Below are positions 16,727 to 58,528 of a stretch of 64,000 nt of DNA, in pieces (position 1 is the first letter of the stretch; every line of letters starts with the position of its first letter). Location of the stretch: positions 875,247-939,246 of the forward strand of contig CAWJWT010000002.1 in assembly GCA_963846655.1 (NCBI GenBank). Reading direction: 5' to 3'. This DNA comes from an uncultured beta proteobacterium (GTDB lineage Bacteria > Pseudomonadota > Gammaproteobacteria > Burkholderiales > JACQAP01). The translations under genes were made by a program, and so were the position numbers. The notes beneath the pieces are model-generated. The model had not been told where the DNA came from. It saw only the letters and a program-made list of their open reading frames with translations, and made no database searches.

Positions 16727-19700
16727 CTACTGCGACAACTCTCGCCAGGAACTGCGGCGGCCGGTCGGGCTCGGTGAGGAGAACGGCGGCGCCAGGTTGG
16801 GATATTTGTTATCCGATGTGGTCACGATCGCAACCGTCTTGTTGTTCGGCAGGCGCACCACGCTGATACCGACCACCAGCGAGTTGCCGATCAGCACGCC
16901 GGCAAGCGTGCTGCCCGAGGATACGACGTAGCCCCCCGTCTTGTAATCCAGGAAGTTCAGATACGAGGTGCCGCCCGACGTGCAGGCGCTCGACGCCGGA
17001 ATATTCGAACCGATGATCAGCGTGCCCAGTTGCAATTTCGGATCCACGTTGACCCGTTCACCCAGGTCCGGAAGATCCACCCGCCACCCGTTCTTCGAGG
17101 CATCGACCGTATTCGATGTCGCCGTGCGCGTTCCTGCACCGACGCCGGTCGTCGTGTTCGTCAACGTCTGGGCGACAATCGTGCCGCCGCGCACATTGAT
17201 CGGTGAGGCGGGCGCAGTGCCGTTGGTCGCATCCTTGATGCCGTAGATCGTCTGAGTCTGCGTGGAGGGCAGGTCGCTGGTGCCCAGATAACGCCCGGTG
17301 CCCACATAGATGAACGGCACCCCGTTGACTTCGCCCAGTTCCGGCTTGGTCGTCACCGGCTGTCCAACGCCGGACGGATCGGTATAGCGCGCGACTGCGT
17401 ACGCAGTGGCTGTATCCAGATTGAAGCGCCACAGATAACCCTGCAAGTCCGCGCCGTACACTCTGAGCGTGGTGTTGTCCACACTGGTGTCATCCACCCA
17501 GTTATTGAGGCGGGAGAGGCCCAGCGGCGTGGTGGTGCTGCCCGGGTTGAGGAACTGCGAGGCATTGGCGGCCTGGATCTTTTTCAGGATCACGCCGGTG
17601 ACCGGGATTCAGCACATACACGTAGCCTTTGCCGTCTCCGGGACTGACGTTGTTATAGCCGGAGGTGACGACCACGACCCAGGTGCCATTGCCAAGCTTG
17701 GTGATGATCGGGTTGCCGTAGGAGAGCCCCAGGTCGCAGTCGTCGGTGCTGACGCCGAGTGTCACGGACGACGGGCAGCTTGCCGTGGGCCTGACATTGA
17801 ATTCCCACAAGCCGACGGGCGTCGCCGGATCGGTGACATCGAGCGCGTAAAACCCGCGTCCGCCCGCACTCAGACCGCCCACCAGAATCGTCTTCCATTT
17901 AGCGGCGACCGGATCGTAGATGTCGCCGACGGTTGGCGAGCCATCGACATAGTACTGGTGACGGTTGCCGTAGTCCTTGTCGGCAAGGCGATACAGGTTC
18001 GGGATCAGGATATTGGGGATGAACGCCCAGCGCTCGTCACCAGTGTCGCCGTTGAAGGCATGCAGCATGCCGTCGTTGGCGGCGATGTACACGCTGGAAC
18101 TGCGCGGACCGCTGAATATCCCGGTACAACCTGCACCGCCAGTGTTGACGCACTCCTTGAAGTTCGCGCCGGCCGGTGCACGCGAATCCGGCGTCGGTGT
18201 AGGCAGCCGAAATCTGCTTCACGTAGACCGGTGCGCCATTGACCACGTCGCCCAGCACATGCTGCCGGTCGCGATACAACTGATTCGCCGTGGCAACCGA
18301 GGCCTGGCTTTCGAAAGAGCCATCGCCCCGGATGAAGTTGACGAGGTTCAGGCCCGCAGCGGCTGCCTGTTGGGCGGCATTCAAGCTTCCCCACTGGGTC
18401 AGCGGATTTGCACCGGTTCCGATCCAGCCGGCATCGAAGTAGGCCTGCTCGGCGCCGCTGAGGTTCGCGTAAGTGAAGTCCTGCAGTTTATTGGTGCTGC
18501 CGGAATTGAACCGCTTGATGGCGCGGCTGCTGCCGCCCGGCGTGGTCGAATTGTTCAGGGTATCGAGCTGGGTCTTGTGCGCTCCAGAGCGCCGTCGGGC
18601 TCACCGCACCGGTGTTCAGGTCGATGGTGCGCGCTTCGACGTCCCCGTTCCAGCGCACGGTCTCGTAACTCGCGACATAGGCGAAGTTGTCGCCGGCCAC
18701 GGGCTCGAGGTTACTGGTTGCCGCAGCGGCCGCCGAACCCGAGACTGCCGTGACGCCCACCAGTGCGTTCGACAGGCCGGTCACCAACTGCGCCGGATCG
18801 CGGGCGCTGAAATAGGTGCCCCGGCCGTTGACCGCGGCGTGCCACAGATCGTCCACGGCGGTGACGGTGTCTGCAACCGGTTGCGGCCAGTTCTTGGCGC
18901 CGTTCTTGATGGCCAGAAAATCCCCGGTCGGATTGGTGCGATAGTCCGACGCATAATTCAGCGCGCCGTCCACGCCCAGGCCCAAAGTCAGGGTCGTCAT
19001 ATGCTGCCAGCTCGCGCTGTCGTTCTGCGGGTCGGTGCCCGGCTGCCCCGGTACGTTATTGGTCGTGCCGACATCGAGCTGGGTAGCGGGGCTGCCGACG
19101 GCAGCGCCCAGCGAGCCCGGCGCGCGCAAGTCGGTGATGTAGTAATACTGCGCGACGTCTGCCAGCGTGTCTGCATAACCCAGCGGGCCGGATGTCGAGG
19201 ACACCGTGTTGGTATTCGCGGCCCCTGCGGTCGTGGACGAAGTCACCGGTCCGATGGTGAAGTCGGCGGAAGTGATGGTTGCGCCGATGGAGTTGCTCGA
19301 CGGTGCGCCGTTCGTGCTCGGTCGACGCACCGGCGGACGGGCCGCCTGTCGTAGTTGTTGGAGATCACGCTGCTGCTGCTGCTTGTCGCCGCGGCGCCGG
19401 GGTGCCCGGTGACTACGGGTGCCGAAGTGCCGCCTACGACCGTGCTGGTCGCAGCTGCGGTTTTTCCCGAGGTATCGCAAGAATTCACAGTGCTGAACGT
19501 CGGGCCGCTGGTCGTCCCGCTGTAAGCTCGTCGTCGCGGCACCTCCGCCAACGGTCGTGCTGATTCTGTTGTAACCCATGATGCGCTGCAGTTTCACTGT
19601 GCGTGCGCCCGAACCCGAGCACGTATAGGTCGTCTGCGGATTGGGACTGCCCCCGAACGCGGCACTGAACGAACTGGCGACATTCGTGCCCTCGGTGCTG

Positions 19701-21839
19701 CTCACCCATTGCGCGGTCTCGGTGATCGGCGTGGTCGTCGTCGAGGTCAGATTGGTGCAGCCCCCGCCCAAAGCGCTCAGCGCATAGGTATTGCCGCCGA
19801 ATGTCGTGGTCGTAGGCCCGGCGCCAACCGTGGTGTCGGTCTGATCGTAGGTCGTGGTCCTGCGCCAGACGCGCGCCCGGTTGGCCCCGCATGTGCCGGT
19901 TGCTTGCGTGCCGCCTGGCACTCCGGAAACGTTCGGCCCGAACGTCGTGGCGGTTACGTTGCCAAAACTGCTTGCGGCGGTTGCCGTCAGGGTTTGTTCC
20001 TGAATGACCGTGAACTGCGTCACTCGCGTGTTGGTCTGGGCAACACAGGCGCCGTTGCTGAAGTTATAGGTGGTTCCGCTCGTGGTCGGCGCACCCGCAA
20101 CGCCGTCAGTCGTGACGACCGTCGTGTTGTAGGTCGTGGTACGCGTTTTGACGTTCGCAAAATTCGAAGCGCAACTGCCCGACTGGTTCGCACCCGCGGC
20201 GACGCCGTTGACCGCGCTGAACGTGGACATGGCATTGCCGCTCAGTTTCTGCTGGTCGGTCATGGTGGTCGGCGTGACGGTGGTCACGACCGTCGCGTTA
20301 CACGCCGTGATGTCCTGATAGGTCGTGGCGCTGCTGGGCGTCGTGCTCAGGACCACGCCGTCGCGCGAGACGACCGTACTGATCGAGGCGGACGTCTGCT
20401 GCTTGACGCGCTTGAAATTCGCCGAGCAACCGCAAGGCGAGGCACCGAAAGCGTTGGCGTTGCCGGTACAAATCTGCTGGTTCAGCGTATTGGTGGTGTT
20501 GACGGTTGTGAGCTGGAATGAACCGTCCAGCAACGGGCGCGGCGCGGTGGTCGGATCGGAGTCCTGATTGCCGATGGCGCTGCCATCAAGGCGCTGTCCG
20601 GCATTGCCGTTCCAGAAACCGTCTGTGGACAACAACGTGAAATTCTGCTGGCACGAATACTGGACCGGATCGTCCGTGATGCCGTTATTGATACCGGTCT
20701 TCACATTGCCATAGTAGCGGCCGACCCGGGACAAGGCTTCGCGCAGCGGCGTCCCACTGGCCGCATCCTGTGCGTAAAACTTGGTAAACCACTGGTCCTT
20801 TTGTCCGCCTGCGCCGGCCGTAAAATCCGCGATCGGCAGGAATTTCGATGTCAGAACGGGATTGCCAGGATTGATCGTAATGAAACCGACGCGGAAGTTA
20901 TCGGTCACCTGCTTGAACGTCAGCCCCGTCGCCGTCTTCATCGTTTGCATGCGGCTGCGATAGTAGGCATACCAGTTGGCGAAGTTCGTCATTTCCTGCG
21001 CGTAGCTGCAACCGGTGGCGCCGACAGCGCCGGTGCAGTCTGTGCGCGAAGCCGCGCGCGGATAGTTGGCGGTCGACGAAACGATATCCGTCCGCGTGAA
21101 GCCGTTGTCTGCCGCTGCCGAATTTCGGATACTGGAAAGTCGCGGTTTTCTTCGGCTGGCAGGTGCCGTTGCCGAAGCCCTTGGTGCCGTCTCTGGTGCT
21201 GCACCAGGCGAGCGCGCTGATGGTGTAGTAATACGGAGTCCGGCGTGCCGGTCACGGCGAACTTCCGGTTATATGTCCCGTTCGGATAAGTCCACACACC
21301 GCCCACGATGGGCAGTCTGCACACGCCGCTGGAGAACGGCGGGGTGCGGTCGGTCGCTGAAGGGGAGTTGGTGTTGCACCAGACCGTATCCGGATAAGCC
21401 GCCGTCAAGATCGATGTTGCCCGAGAACTGGACTCCGTAGGCGTCGTTCGGCACTGCCGTCCAGGTGGTATAGCTGGTCCGGCTGGTTCCGTCATAGTTA
21501 ACCGCGGGCGTATAGGTGATGGCCGGGTTGTAGTACATGCCGTTGAACAGCGCGGCGTTGTACGCCGGGTCGGCAAAACTGCAGGTTCGCAGCGTGGCGT
21601 CGTCGTCCTTGCAGGCGGGATCGTCGGAAACCGAGTCCGGCATGTAATCCCGATCCATACTGCCGGAGCCATCCAGCACGAACATCAGGTTGGGCTTCAC
21701 GACTGCGCTGGCCGTGTTGGCCATCGGTGCGGGTGCGATGTCGGTCAACGCCGCGTTGACTGTGGTCATGGCCAGTCCCAAGCCGAGGACAAGGGCCATC
21801 TCTGGTCATAGTCAGGCTCGTCGGTGCAGTGCGCTTCAT
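16727..21839 (-). pseudogene. pilY1: Type IV pilus tip adhesin / biogenesis factor PilY1 (~1700 codons), fragmented by at least 8 frameshifts as sequenced
   Basis: Pieces in three frames: 21269-21799 (signal peptide, vWA MIDAS KPNLMFVLDGSGSMD), part of 20989-21672, 18488-20992 (EMTNFANWYAYYRSRM...), part of 19243-19551, 18037-18384+, 17502-18092 ([26 protein letters not shown], beta-propeller) and 16727-17593 (VYGADLQGYLWRFNL). Conserved sequence continues across each junction only after a frame change. Confidence 0.85.
19310..20470 (-). repeat. Four ~90-aa Thr/Ser/Gly-rich two-cysteine modules inside pilY1 (coding repeat)
   Basis: Recurrent pattern C-x(5-8)-VK-x-(R/Q)-T-T-x-Y...TT..G......TTS.TTY.FS...C. 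First Cys of each module is at residues ~187/189, 274, 368 and 458 of the 834-aa ORF. Confidence 0.6.
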
Positions 21840-24037: not shown

Positions 24038-24573
24038 TTAGCATCTGCGCGAATCGCCGGCCGTGGCGACTTGCGGATCGCACATCTTGATCTGGCCGCC
24101 AACCGCCACTGTCAGAGTTCAAGCAGCGCATATTGGTGGTGCCGGTGCCGCAGGCGCCACCGGTCGGATTGGTGACCTGGATGGTTGCGGCCGCCGCAAG
24201 ATTGGTCTTTGCCCAGGCCGTCGAAGGTGATCGTTGGATTGGTGGTGGCAATGACCGCGTTCGGCGTACCTTCGGCCGCGGAACGCGTTTGCACCGTTCC
24301 ATTTTCCAGCGCGGACGGGCTGTCGATCGTGACCGTCCAGCTTGAATCGGGGCCGGCCATGCTGAAGGTCACGGCTTTGTTGCGCTGTACTGCGTTGGCG
24401 CGCGCCAGTTGCAGTCCGTTCAAGACGGATTCGGCGGCATTGCGCACTTGCACGTTCTGCAGCCAGGCGGTGAAACTCGGCACACCCAGGCCCAGCAGTA
24501 CGCCGATGATGACGAAGCCGATCAGCAGTTCGATCAGCGTCAGGCCAGCCGAAAAACGGGCGCGCATCAGCAT
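24038..24573 (-). pseudogene. fimT: GspH/FimT(FimU)-family minor pilin; two apparent frameshifts (~24205-24210 and ~24112-24125)
   Basis: [34 protein letters not shown]...NPTITFDGLG in frame a; KTNLAAAATIQVTNPTGGACGTGTTNMRCL in frame b; TLTVAVGGQIKMCDPQVATAGDSRRC-stop (typical family C-terminus) in frame c, ending at TAA 24040-24038. Confidence 0.75.
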
Positions 24574-28116: not shown

Positions 28117-28192
28117 GCCGCTGTAGCTCAGTTGGTAGAGCAGCGCATTCGTAATGCGAAGGTCGCCAGTTCGACTCCGGCCAGCGGCACCA
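28117..28192 (+). tRNA. tRNA-Thr (anticodon CGU)
   Basis: Manual cloverleaf. 7-bp acceptor stem GCCGCTG/CAGCGGC, D-arm GCTC/GAGC with AGTTGGTA loop, anticodon loop TTCGTAA, T-loop TTCGACT, encoded CCA. One A-C mismatch in the T-stem (positions 52:62 = nt 28168/28178) and a G-A at 27:43. Confidence 0.9.
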
Positions 28193-38695: not shown

Positions 38696-39589
38696 ATGAA
38701 CATACAAGCCTCCGATCAAGCTGAAGGATTGCGCCGCCTGCTGGGCAAGCAGATGCCCAAGATCATCACGTTGGTGTCCGGTTGTGCACGCACCGGCAAG
38801 ACTTGCGCAACGATCAATCTGGCGGTAGCCATTGCGCAGGCCGGCCGCAGCGTGATGCTGTTTGACGAGAACTGCGGCCCGCGCAACGTCACGGGCACGC
38901 TCGGGATCGATACCGTGGCCGACATGGCCGACACCATTCGCGGCAACCGTGCGCTCGAACACACGCTCGTTCCCGGACCCGAGGGCCTCGTGATCCTTCC
39001 GGCCGGAAACGGCGTGCGCGCCCTGGCCGATATCGATGAAGCCGGATGCGCAAGACTGCGGGAAGGATTCGCGCGCATCGCGGGAGCCCTGGATTTCATC
39101 CTCGTGGACACCGCTGCCGGATCCTCGAGCCGGCTGCTCCCGCTGGTGCATCCGGAGGACGAAACCATCCTGGTTACGACCGGCAGCGGTGCCGGCCAGG
39201 CCGATGCGCTGGGTATGATCAAGCTCATGCACCGCGAACTGGGCACGCGCAATCTGCAAGTGCTGGTCTCGCTGACGCGCGCGGAAGTCGAGGCCGAGGC
39301 TGCGTACTGCAACCTTGCCGGCGTCGCCAGCAGACATCTTGGCGCGCGTCTCGAATACTTCGGTGCCGCGTGCGCGGACGAGCACATCGCACGGGCCGCC
39401 AAAGTGGGGCGCAGTGCGCTCGAAATGTTTCCGCATGCACACGGCTCCGAGCAATGGCGCGCGCAGGCGCGGGACGTCATGCGCTGGCCGCTGCCGCGGG
39501 ACGCGGCGCAAGGCATGGATCGCTTTGTGCAGCGCTTGATTCTGGGCAGCCGCGTACGCATGGGCGCAGCAGCGCTCTCGGCGGCGTAA
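38696..39589 (+). CDS. flhG: MinD/ParA-family flagellar number regulator FlhG (FleN), atypical P-loop
   Basis: DQAEGLRRLL N-terminus and position after flhF. P-loop reads GCARTGKT (38780-38803), which fits GxxxxGKT but lacks the signature first Lys of the deviant Walker A KGGxGK[ST]. Confidence 0.75.
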   Translation: MNIQASDQAEGLRRLLGKQMPKIITLVSGCARTGKTCATINLAVAIAQAGRSVMLFDENCGPRNVTGTLGIDTVADMADTIRGNRALEHTLVPGPEGLVILPAGNGVRALADIDEAGCARLREGFARIAGALDFILVDTAAGSSSRLLPLVHPEDETILVTTGSGAGQADALGMIKLMHRELGTRNLQVLVSLTRAEVEAEAAYCNLAGVASRHLGARLEYFGAACADEHIARAAKVGRSALEMFPHAHGSEQWRAQARDVMRWPLPRDAAQGMDRFVQRLILGSRVRMGAAALSAA

Positions 39590-43024: not shown

Positions 43025-43684
43025 ATGACCACGATTGCAGATCTGCAAAGCCTTTCGAGCAGTCCTGCCGCCAAGGCTGCGCCCAATACGCGCTCCGAAG
43101 CGCAGGACCGCTTCCTCAAGCTGCTGGTCACGCAAATGCAGAACCAGGACCCGCTCAACCCGATGGACAACGCGCAGGTGACTACCCAGCTTGCGCAACT
43201 CAACACGGTGAGCGGCATCGAGCAGCTCAACAAAACACTCGGACAAATGGCCGCTTCCAGTGCCGCGCAGCAGGCGCTGCAGGCGGCGATGCTGGTGGGG
43301 CGCGACGTGCTTGTGGCGGGCGACAGATTGAGTTTCACCGGCCAGCCGGCGCGCTTCGGCATTGAAGTGCCCCAGGCCGTCGATGGGTTGACGATCACCA
43401 TCACGGACGCCAAGGGCCAGGTCGTCCAGGCGTTCCAGGCCGGTGCGCAGGCGCAGGGCGCAACCACCTTCCAGTGGGACGGCCTCGATAGCGCCGGCAA
43501 TGCCGTACCGCACGGTGTGTATGGTCTCTCGGCAAGCGCGCGGGCAGGCAGCGCCGCGGTCACGCCGGTCACGCTCGTGGGCGAAACCGTGCAATCGGTG
43601 GGCAGCGCGGCCGACGGCAGCATCCAGTTGCAGTTGTTGGGCCTCGGCAGTGTGGGCATCGCCGATATCAAACGATTTCTGTAA
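43025..43684 (+). CDS. flgD: Flagellar hook capping protein FlgD
   Basis: FLKLLVTQMQNQDPLNPMDNAQVTTQLAQLNTVSGIEQL motif. Confidence 0.9.
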   Translation: MTTIADLQSLSSSPAAKAAPNTRSEAQDRFLKLLVTQMQNQDPLNPMDNAQVTTQLAQLNTVSGIEQLNKTLGQMAASSAAQQALQAAMLVGRDVLVAGDRLSFTGQPARFGIEVPQAVDGLTITITDAKGQVVQAFQAGAQAQGATTFQWDGLDSAGNAVPHGVYGLSASARAGSAAVTPVTLVGETVQSVGSAADGSIQLQLLGLGSVGIADIKRFL

Positions 43685-55112: not shown

Positions 55113-55574
55113 TCAACGATTCAGTTGCCGCATGCGTTCCGAGGGCGTCACGATATCGGTCAGGCGGATGCCGAACTTGTCGTTGACCACGACGACTTCG
55201 CCTTGTGCGATCAGGCAGCCGTTGACCAGTACATCCATCGGTTCACCGGCCAGTCCGTCGAGTTCGACCACCGAACCCTGGGCGAGCTGCAGCAGGTTCT
55301 TGATCGTGATCTTGGTGCGGCCGAGTTCCACGGTGAGCTGCACCGGGATGTTGAGAATCATGTCGATGTCGTTCTTGACCCCCGCCGTGGCGCCGCGCGC
55401 AAGTTCCTGGAACGCCGGTGCCGCCGTCGGTTCGGCCGCACCCGGTTCCGCGACCGCGGTGTGCCCTTCGTCGTTGTGGAGTCCTGCATTGGTCGGTTCT
55501 GGCATTTCTGCCTCCGTGGGTTTGGATTGAAAAGGCCGCTTTTCGCGGTCCCGGCGTTCCTGTTCAGTGGTCAT
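55113..55574 (-). CDS. fliN: Flagellar motor switch protein FliN
   Basis: C-terminal SpoA domain ...ILNIPVQLTVELGRTKITIKNLLQLAQGSVVELDGLAGEPMDVLVNGCLIAQGEVVVVNDKFGIRLTDI. Confidence 0.9.
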   Translation of the reverse strand: MTTEQERRDREKRPFQSKPTEAEMPEPTNAGLHNDEGHTAVAEPGAAEPTAAPAFQELARGATAGVKNDIDMILNIPVQLTVELGRTKITIKNLLQLAQGSVVELDGLAGEPMDVLVNGCLIAQGEVVVVNDKFGIRLTDIVTPSERMRQLNR

Positions 55575-56559
55575 TCTGTTCCGCGACGCTGTGATTGATC
55601 ATTCGCTGCACGCGCAATGCGTACTGGCCGTTGAACACGCCATGGTTGCATTCCATGACCGGTACGCCATCGACGGTGGCGATCAATTCCGCGGGGATCT
55701 GCAGCGGGATGACATCGCCCACTTGCAGGCCGTTTACCTGGCTCAAGGTGAGCTTCGCGCAGCCCAGATTGGCCACCAGTTCCACTTCCGCTGACTGGAC
55801 CTGGCGCGACAGCAGGCGTAACCAGCGCTTGTCGGCCTTGTTGCGCTCGCCCTGCGCCGTCGAGTTCAGGACGTCGCGAATCGGTTCGATCATTGCGTAG
55901 GGCAGGCACAGATGAAAGTCGCCGCTGGTGCCGCCCAGTTCGATGGTGAAGGTCGTGGTGATGACGATTTCGTTCGGTGTCGCAATGCTGGCGACCTGCG
56001 GGTCCGGCTCGGCGCGCACGCTCTCGAACTTCACCGGGTAAACCGGTTTCCACGATTGCTCGAGGTTCTCGAACGCCACCTCCATGAGCCGCTCGACGAT
56101 GCGCCGCTCCGTGGGCGTGAATTCGCGTGCTTCATCCCGCGCCGGGAAACGCCCGTCGCCGCCGAACAGCGTATCGATCACCAGGGCGACCAGGGCGGGG
56201 TCGAAAACGAACACGCCGTTGCCGCGCAGCGGCTTGAGTTCCACCATGTTCAGATGGACCGGCGCCGCCAGGCTGCGCAGGAATTCGCCGTATTTCTGCG
56301 CACGTACCGGACCGACGGAAATCTCCGCGCTGCGGCGCATGAAGTTGAACAGCCCGACGCGCATCAGCCGTGCAAAGCGCTCGTTGATGAGTTCAAACGT
56401 GGGCATGCGCCCGCGTACGATGCGCTCCTGGGTCGCGACGTTGTAGGGCTGAACCTGCGCCTCCCCGCCCGCTTTCGCCGGTGCGGCGGCGGGCGCTTCG
56501 CCGGACACGCCTTCGAGCAGCGCGTCGACTTCGTTCTGGGTCAGAAATTCTTTGGCCAT
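55564..56559 (-). CDS. fliM: Flagellar motor switch protein FliM
   Basis: MAKEFLTQNEVDALLEG (CheY-P binding-type N-terminus). 331 aa. Confidence 0.9.
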   Translation of the reverse strand: MAKEFLTQNEVDALLEGVSGEAPAAAPAKAGGEAQVQPYNVATQERIVRGRMPTFELINERFARLMRVGLFNFMRRSAEISVGPVRAQKYGEFLRSLAAPVHLNMVELKPLRGNGVFVFDPALVALVIDTLFGGDGRFPARDEAREFTPTERRIVERLMEVAFENLEQSWKPVYPVKFESVRAEPDPQVASIATPNEIVITTTFTIELGGTSGDFHLCLPYAMIEPIRDVLNSTAQGERNKADKRWLRLLSRQVQSAEVELVANLGCAKLTLSQVNGLQVGDVIPLQIPAELIATVDGVPVMECNHGVFNGQYALRVQRMINHSVAEQNDH

Positions 56560-57254
56560 GCTCGCGGAGCGGATCTACTGGATGATGAAGGAAGTGAACA
56601 GCACGCTCTTGACCAGATAGTCCTCGGGCGACTGCGCTTCGCTCTCTTCTTCGTCGCCGGCTTCGGCTTCGGTGGCCTCGTCCTCGGCCGCTTCGCCTCG
56701 GCCGCTTCGCCCTCCGCCGCCACCCTGGTGATCTTGAGCGGGGCCGGGGCCGGGATGGACTCGGGGTCGACGACCGCCGTGATTTCCAGGCGCACGGCTT
56801 CGGCGAGTTTCAATTTACCGTCGGTCGTGAGCACTTCCTGCGAGGTCTTGTTCGCGAGCAGCATCAGGATGCGATTGCGCACTTCAGGCATGTGCGCCTT
56901 GACCGCGTCCACGACGCCGGGCCCGGCGAGCCGCAGCGTCATCTCGGTCTGCAGAAACTGATCGTTGCCCTGCGCCTGCGGATTGCGCAAGTTTACGACG
57001 AACGCTTCCAGCGGCAGATAGACCGGAGGTCCGGCCCGATTGACCTGCTTGACGGGATTTTTTTTGACCGGTTCGGCCTTGGCTTCACCCGGCGCGGCCG
57101 GGAACAACCGGAGGGCGAACCAGGTGCCGCCGCTGCCCAGCACGCAGCACAGCGCCGCGATGAGGATCATCGTTTTCTTGCCAGCCGGTTTCTTGGCCGG
57201 GACGTCGGGGATTTCCTCTTGCGTTTCGGCGTCGGCTTTCGGATTCTTTGCCAT
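56541..57254 (-). pseudogene. fliL: Flagellar basal-body-associated protein FliL, C-terminus frameshifted by a 14-bp tandem duplication (native stop would be at 56577-56579)
   Basis: N-terminal 190 aa are FliL-like (TM ILIAALCCVLGSGGTWFAL; YLPLEAFVVNL...FLQTEMTLRL). After 56708 the frame gives an Arg/Lys/Pro-rich tail, whereas another frame encodes ...DYLVKSVLFTSFIIQ-stop, the usual FliL ending. Confidence 0.85.
56681..56708. repeat. Exact 14-bp tandem duplication (cctcggccgcttcg x2) inside fliL
   Basis: 56681-56694 and 56695-56708 are identical. Removing one copy restores a continuous FliL frame ending in LFTSFIIQ. Confidence 0.95.
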
Positions 57255-57363: not shown

Positions 57364-58528
57364 TCAGGCGAACGTGTCCACCAGGGCGTTGCCGCGTCTA
57401 GTGGGTGGCGTGGATGTGGTTTCCAGCGCGTCCTCGCGCCCGGATTGCGCCGTGGTGCGAGGGGTGCCGCTGAATTGCCGGCCCGGGTCGGCGAACGCGT
57501 TGCCGTTTCCGGCCGTTCCCGCGTCCACGCTGGCCTGACCCAGTGCAATGCCGCTGGCCTGGAGCATTTCGCGCAATTTCGGCAACGCCGCTTCGATGGC
57601 CTCGCGCGTGCTCGCGTTGAGGGCACTGAATTGCACGGCGGCCGATGAACGGGAGCCTTCGGGGTCGCTGGTGAGCGTCAGTTTGATTTCGATGGGGCCG
57701 AGGTCCTCCGGATTCAGGCGAATGGCCGCGGACTGCACATCGTTTTTTGCCATCCAGACCACGCGCGCCGATAACCCGTCGTCCCACGCGGGCGTGCCGA
57801 ACGGCTGCGCCAGATAGTCCAGGTGCGCGGCCCCTGCAGCCGGCGCGTGGGAGGCTCCCGGATGCGTGGCTGACAGCAGCGGTCCATGCGCATTGACGGA
57901 AGGCGAGGGCGGTGCCGGCCGGACGGGATCGCGCGCAACGGACATATCCGGTTTGACGGCCGCGGCCAATCCGGCGTCCGCGAGCGGCGACCTTGCGGCG
58001 GTGCCGGGCTCGGGCAACTCCCCGCGCTGCGGGCCCCGCCCGTTGACGTCCATCGACTGCGGTAGCGCTGCGTTGTCCGCGGGCACGTCGGCGTCGATCG
58101 CGGGATTCGCAGCGCCGGATGCAGCGCCGAGCCCCGCGTCGTTGCGCCCGCGTGCGGGCAGCGCCGCGGATGGATCCGCTATTGCGACATTCAGTCGCCG
58201 GGGGCGGCGCAGGATTTGCGGGCGTGCCTTGCGCGGGCGCGGCGTGTGCGGCCTGTGCAGTGGCCTGGCCGGCCGCGATCGCTTGCAACAGCGCGGCGGG
58301 ATCCCACGCTGCCGCGGGCCCGGATGCTTCCGTTGCCGGCATTGCGTCTAAGCCGGTCGCGGGAGCCTCCGGTGCAAGCCGCCCGATGCCGCTGTCGAGC
58401 AATTCGGCGAAATCCGCGTCGCCCTGACCGGCCGCCGCAGGCTCCTCGGGCGGCGCGCCCGCCGCCGCTGAAATGGCGTTGGCCGCCGTGGCGGGCTGCG
58501 AACTGTTCAACAAGGGCAATGTGCTCAT
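57364..58528 (-). pseudogene. fliK: Flagellar hook-length control protein FliK; one apparent frameshift at the G5 run 58200-58204
   Basis: N-terminal frame (from ATG 58528): MSTLPLLNSSQPATAANAISAAAG...GTPANPAPPPA. The C-terminal frame continues ...LNVAIADPSAALPA... through the conserved FliK C-domain (AWDDGLSARVVWMAKNDVQSAAIRLNPEDLGPIEIKLTL). Confidence 0.8.

Follow-up and report, generated by a model that had tools for sequence, protein, structure and literature searches.

The fliL gene of the window (the whole 64-kb stretch of DNA analysed here) carries an exact 14-bp tandem duplication that throws the 3′ end of the gene out of frame, so that, as sequenced, the encoded FliL protein lacks a strand that is integral to the periplasmic domain. 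We consider it probable that this frameshift is an artefact of consensus calling or assembly, located in a strain-variable acidic linker with a 15-nt periodicity in a fliL that is intact apart from this, and we regard the biological reality of the lesion as doubtful.

An exact 14-bp tandem duplication in fliL

The duplicated unit, CCTCGGCCGCTTCG on the forward strand and CGAAGCGGCCGAGG on the coding strand, is present in two tandem copies at positions 56682–56695 and 56696–56709, in a gene that is read from the reverse strand. Both copies were located in the sequence itself, and the exact back-to-back repeat reported in a preliminary description of this DNA is therefore confirmed. However, the coordinates given there (56681–56708) were off by one, and the correct start is one base to the right, at 56682. 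Identity at period 14 spans positions 56682–56711, which leaves a 2-nt microhomology, GG, at the junction.

A 14-bp repeat in fliL is beyond chance. Shuffles of the window gave an expectation of 0.21 matches to the unit, and the duplication is the sole exact tandem with a period of at least 10 in the 64 kb. Among second-order Markov simulations (n = 300), the maximum period was 13, reached in one simulation, and period 14 was seen in none. The window holds three other exact tandems, each of 9 bp and all in frame. One lies at 38916–38933, in an ORF not checked against Pfam (38696–39589, probably flhG/fleN); another is found at 43557–43574 in flgD; and the last is located at 56180–56197 in fliM, where it specifies ALVALV and probably does not represent an insertion.

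The fliL duplication is located inside an imperfect 15-nt (5-codon) array at 56660–56720 on the reverse strand, for which Tandem Repeats Finder reported a period of 15, 4.1 copies and 80% matches. This array encodes the acidic linker of the protein (AAEGE/AAEDE/ATEAE/AGDEE). The nearest relative (L001, 73% amino acid identity) has a single unit at the position of the duplication, which argues that the extra copy is lineage-specific and derived, and the perfection of the copy argues that it is recent.

The last strand of FliL is encoded in the shifted frame

As sequenced, the fliL ORF extends from 57254 to 56541 on the reverse strand and encodes 237 amino acids. The protein departs from frame 40 codons before the end, exiting after ..VAAEGEAAE and running on as AKRPRTRPPKPKPATKKRAKRSRPRTIW.. 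to a stop that lies 16 nt beyond the fliM ATG. Acidic GAR-rich codons are thereby read out of frame as a 56-residue Lys/Arg/Pro tail, which takes the place of the last β-strand (..VKSVLFTSFIIQ) and overlaps the start of fliM by 19 nt. A basic tail overlapping fliM had been described previously, and the ORF as sequenced does indeed end within that gene. The C-terminal β-strand (..V.FT.F..Q) is missing from this frame and is present only in the shifted one, in which the true 3′ end of fliL is located at 56575–56681 on the reverse strand (EATEAEAGDEEESEAQSPEDYLVKSVLFTSFIIQ, stop at 56575–56577).

Two repairs recover this end. Deletion of 14 bp gives a FliL of 221 amino acids (..EGEAAED..) ending in ..SPEDYLVKSVLFTSFIIQ, and addition of one G to the junction GG converts the repeat into an in-frame 15-bp duplication and gives a protein of 226 amino acids (..EGEAAEGEAAED..). 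Both lead to the same conserved C-terminal end. The deletion of one copy was the repair put forward in the preliminary description, and it does restore the conserved FliL ending; the second repair had been missed. The restored stop, which had been placed at 56577–56579 with a 17-nt gap to fliM, is actually at 56575–56577, and 15 nt separate it from the fliM ATG (at 56559). Junction microhomology is 4 nt (GAGG) for the 15-bp duplication versus 2 nt for the 14-bp duplication.

Codon usage and profile matches also identify the shifted frame as that of FliL. The codon-usage score 3′ of the repeat was +24 bits in the shifted frame versus −31 bits in the frame as sequenced. Against the Pfam FliL profile (PF03748, cut-off 24.6 bits), the protein as sequenced scored 59.7 bits over profile positions 1–84 of 103, and the repaired protein scored 70.1 bits over positions 1–103 of 103; the NCBIfam FliL models match FliL below their equivalog cut-offs. 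These scores, together with the C-terminal ends of relatives described below, bear out the earlier claim that the duplication frameshifts fliL. No signs of pseudogene decay were found in the shifted-frame tail, in which the invariant motif is retained and codon usage is normal.

The C-terminal strand is conserved in relatives and in solved structures

The window gene resembles members of the FliL family (flagellar basal-body-associated stator-ring proteins) in its Pfam match, in the N-terminal hydrophobic helix of its product, and in its location between fliK and fliM. The C-terminal end ..SPEDYKVKSVLFTSF[IV]IQ (SVLFTSF[IV]IQ) is shared by 50 of 50 relatives. The last β-strand shows no variation among 30 relatives, and of the 29 invariant columns in a 31-member alignment, 9 fall within the last 12 residues. 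A comparison with the fliL genes of relatives had been proposed as a check in the preliminary description, and it revealed that neither the two-copy 14-bp repeat nor the basic tail occurs in any of the 50.

The solved FliL domains (PDB ID codes 7SGN, 6AHQ, and 9HMF) finish with the same terminal motif, vkxVlFTxFiiQ, which the window gene carries in its shifted frame. The first of these is the periplasmic domain of FliL from H. pylori and the last is from the C. jejuni motor; 6AHQ and the companion entry 6AHP are described only as FliL fragments 40–167 and 58–167, and we take them to be V. alginolyticus FliL. In an AlphaFold2 model of the repaired protein, the pLDDT was >90 in the core, <50 in the linker, and ~90 in the strand at residues 210–220. 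Foldseek matched this model to 7sgn, 6ahq, and 9hmf (E-values, 4e-7 to 1e-5; target-normalised TM-scores against the solved FliL domains, 0.8–0.94). Repaired FliL is thus predicted by modelling to take the SPFH-like fold of FliL. Since the C-terminal strand is conserved in relatives and solved structures, and is supported by the Pfam profile, codon usage and the model, the protein as sequenced is one that has lost an integral strand.

The FliL proteins of this clade of uncultured Betaproteobacteria differ from known FliL in that ~45 disordered, acidic residues are inserted after the domain core and ahead of the last strand, and the window gene as sequenced differs further in that its last strand is out of frame. 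Among relatives, the distance from the conserved VVDP motif to the last strand is 41–76 residues, with a mode of 47, and the linker lengths obtained after the two repairs (45 and 50 residues) are both inside this range. Across the clade (56578–56720 on the reverse strand of the window, and P0002–P0039), the length of the insertion varies partly through in-frame duplications. One relative, P0018, has an in-frame near-duplication within its FliL linker.

A search of 5.8 billion proteins recovered the protein as sequenced once, as an identical entry (P0001), and the next best match was 73% identical; the as-sequenced protein is known from a single contig, of 1,042,590 bp. An exact look-up of the same protein in Logan returned no contig. 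FliL from the same species was not found in genome and metagenome contig collections, in which the only matches were relatives with 47–59% identity. When the three possible C-termini were used as an alignment query, one distant match was obtained and P0001 was missed too, making this a weak negative.

Thirteen single-base insertions elsewhere in the window

Besides the fliL event, there are 13 single-base frameshifts, ten in pilY1, two in a minor pilin gene, and one in fliK, and every one of them is a +1 insertion. The pilY1 gene (16727–21836, reverse strand) is colinear with intact homologues of ~1,690 amino acids and needs ten +1 frame corrections, near 21800, 21406, 21240, 21110, 19526, ~19356, ~19316, 18571, 18178, and 17603. 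An apparent −1 event in this gene was rejected, as it resolved into two +1 steps. The pilY1 frameshifts were mapped with homologues obtained in a search with a chimeric query that spanned the frameshift sites. The gene for a GspH-domain minor pilin (FimU/FimT-like; 24041–24567, reverse strand) is interrupted twice by +1 insertions, at ~24207 (AAA-G-ACC) and ~24116 (AAC-T-CTG), and the pilE/V/W/X-like genes next to it are intact, each in a single frame. Lastly, fliK (57364–58528, reverse strand) is interrupted in its Pro/Ala-rich variable middle region by a +1 insertion, which lies near 58208 within GCCGCCCCCGGCG.

Frameshifted segments are 63–91% identical to their intact homologues (per segment). 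Restoring the frame left zero stop codons, both in fliK and in the 3′ 4.3 kb of pilY1, for which a C-terminal repair was made at three sites; the remaining seven pilY1 sites were traced by reading across frames. Most of the 13 frameshifts lie outside homopolymers (e.g., AGA-G-ATG, GGC-A-GAC, GCG-TGCA-CCG, and the two minor pilin sites), and all are within strain-variable genes. Approximately 16 kb of housekeeping genes in the window are intact, and those for IleRS, CysI/H/D/N, CobA, RibF, LspA, and IspH are each in a single frame. Real indel spectra are deletion-biased. A pattern made up of insertions only, which avoids homopolymers and spares housekeeping genes, is unlike bacterial pseudogene decay and resembles a consensus artefact.

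Ten of 12 +1 sites fit a reading in which two alleles, synonymous at the third codon position, abut one another, versus 43% of simulated random insertions (P ~0.005); restricting the test to the eight sites that are strictly comparable raised P to ~0.07. A first, permissive form of this test was dropped, since 93% of random insertions passed it. Such paired synonymous alleles suggest a consensus drawn from mixed strains, and the evidence as a whole points to the 13 frameshifts being consensus errors, perhaps arising from mixed strains.

A relative (contig_110277 of ENA assembly ERZ25039602) with 77–85% amino acid identity to the window in housekeeping genes is syntenic with it over ribF-ileS-lspA-ispH-pilY1 and the minor pilins, and there all of these genes are intact. 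The contig names in this ENA assembly are Flye-style, a weak hint toward a mixed-strain consensus. Rfam and ARAGORN gave a sole match in the window, a tRNA-Thr (CGT) at 28117–28192 on the forward strand.

The flagellar neighbourhood of fliL

The order of genes is fliK, fliL, fliM, and then fliN/O/P/Q/R. The fliM gene (55564–56559, reverse strand) is intact, with its start codon 15 nt beyond the restored stop of fliL. flgB-L, flhA/B/F, fliF-J, and fliM-R are each in a single frame, and ~35 other flagellar and chemotaxis genes in the window are intact. A candidate split in flgH was rejected, as that gene proved to be intact.

The Logan assembly of run ERR12037361, which is an independent one, also contains the exact FliM protein. 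The contig that encodes it is 1,307 bp long and corresponds to window positions ~55322–56628; one of its ends is inside the acidic linker of fliL (~56628), and the other is ~84 codons into fliN. These ends could reflect sequence heterogeneity in the sample, and the one inside the linker is a second weak hint toward a mixed-strain consensus.

Origin of the fliL frameshift

Frameshift and indel errors in the consensus are a known quality problem of draft and metagenome assemblies. The window is like such assemblies in its many single-base frameshifts that split genes colinear with intact homologues, in the absence of stops once the frame is restored, and in the clustering of the events in variable regions. 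The fliL event differs, in that it is a perfect 14-bp tandem copy where a single base is usual. Nor do we know of any documented mechanism by which a polisher would produce a perfect 14-bp tandem copy, and this counts against an artefact, as does the fact that real tandem duplications of ~14 bp with short microhomology are a common type of spontaneous mutation. We nevertheless favour an artefact because all 13 of the other frameshifts in the window look artefactual, and because the fliL event is itself an insertion, placed in a linker whose length varies among relatives and which in P0018 holds an in-frame near-duplication. A 15-bp duplication would have the longer microhomology and would keep the gene in frame, the rest of the flagellar regulon is intact, and the shifted fliL tail is free of decay, all of which argue in the same direction; the end of the Logan contig within the fliL linker would fit heterogeneity at this site. 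The preliminary description had ranked this disruption above others as a likely real mutation, on the grounds that a 14-bp duplication is not a typical homopolymer error, but that argument carries less weight here, since the 13 artefactual-looking frameshifts are mostly not homopolymer errors either.

If the frameshift is an artefact, the process behind the 13 single-base insertions would also have yielded an out-of-frame length for fliL, and this could have come about in either of two ways, to which we give nearly equal weight. We tentatively entertain the possibility that an in-frame 15-bp unit with GAGG microhomology (protein ..EGEAAEGEAAED..) was gained in the organism, or in a subset of a mixed population, and that the assembly rendered it one G short. 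This would, however, call for a single-base loss, and there are zero losses among the 13 other events. It is somewhat unlikely, though conceivable, that the true fliL has one copy of the unit and that the extra 14 bp are spurious. In either case, FliL would be functional in the cell.

Spontaneous short tandem duplications with microhomology at the junction are a general class of mutation that creates pseudogenes, and the fliL of the window is like them in its head-to-tail copy, its 2-nt microhomology, the resulting frameshift, and its freedom from decay; it differs in that the copy may exist in the assembly only. Because several species can swim without FliL, cells could tolerate a real loss. 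A genuine, very recent 14-bp duplication in the dominant genotype, made by replication slippage or by microhomology-mediated duplication at the GG junction, would make fliL a fresh pseudogene, and on balance we think this unlikely. The encoded protein would retain its transmembrane helix and the greater part of the periplasmic domain but not the last β-strand, and would probably be either unstable or incapable of assembling into the FliL ring that surrounds the stator. The gene would be restored if one copy were lost, and a reversal by slippage is possible in principle. The exactness of the repeat, far beyond chance, its difference in kind from the single-base events of the window, the single unit in the nearest relative (which makes the extra copy derived), and the lack of further decay, as would fit a recent event, all speak for a real duplication. 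So does the record of such lesions in other bacteria, as spontaneous fliL frameshifts have been documented in H. pylori (PMC9570263) and fliL mutations have been found in host-independent variants of Bdellovibrio (PMC11323537). Against it stand the 13 artefactual-looking frameshifts, which make the assembly unreliable in variable regions of this kind; the integrity of all flagellar genes except fliK and fliL, which argues for selection on motility; the 9-bp length and in-frame position of each of the other three exact tandems; and the origin of the as-sequenced protein from one contig only.

In other bacteria, motility genes are known to undergo repeat-based phase variation, with C. jejuni flgR/flgS/flhA and B. 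subtilis swrA as examples of the slipped-strand type. That the two-copy state of fliL is functional, either as a selected phase-variable switch or through a programmed frameshift that provides a basic C-terminus, is nonetheless extremely improbable. The only property in its favour is a formal one, that removal of one copy restores the frame and with it the conserved end, so that a change in repeat number toggles the reading frame. There are, however, just two copies of the 14-nt unit, and no relative carries the repeat or the basic tail (L001 has a single unit, and 0 of 50 relatives have the repeat). A functional basic tail was rejected because no homologue carries one and because its codon usage, at −31 bits, is strongly non-coding; inspection of the sequence alone revealed no slippery site or stimulatory structure that would point to a programmed frameshift. 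The fliL gene of H. pylori, in which slipped-strand phase variation involves a homopolymeric A run (PMC9570263), is comparable to the window gene insofar as the copy number of a repeat sets the frame. The window gene differs from such systems in having two long 14-nt units in place of a long tract of 1–7-nt units, in the lack of conservation of its repeat among relatives, and in the lack of evidence for switching. It is likewise highly improbable that a real 14-bp allele coexists with a one-copy allele in a natural population of this uncultured betaproteobacterium. If it did, FliL would be switched on and off reversibly by gain and loss of one unit in the repeat-prone acidic linker, and stator support and surface-related motility would be switched along with it.

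Implications for annotation and motility

For annotation and quality control, our analysis means that fliL, fliK, pilY1, and the minor pilin gene should not be called pseudogenes, nor the organism non-motile, from the sequence of the window alone. One-sided +1 insertions in variable genes are also a warning sign for the assembly as a whole. Either way, the fliL event is an ordinary one, whether an error of the assembly or a loss-of-function allele of recent date. If sequencing reads proved the duplication to be real, fliL, a non-essential gene for a motor accessory protein, would simply have acquired such an allele, with modest interest for how motility varies within populations.
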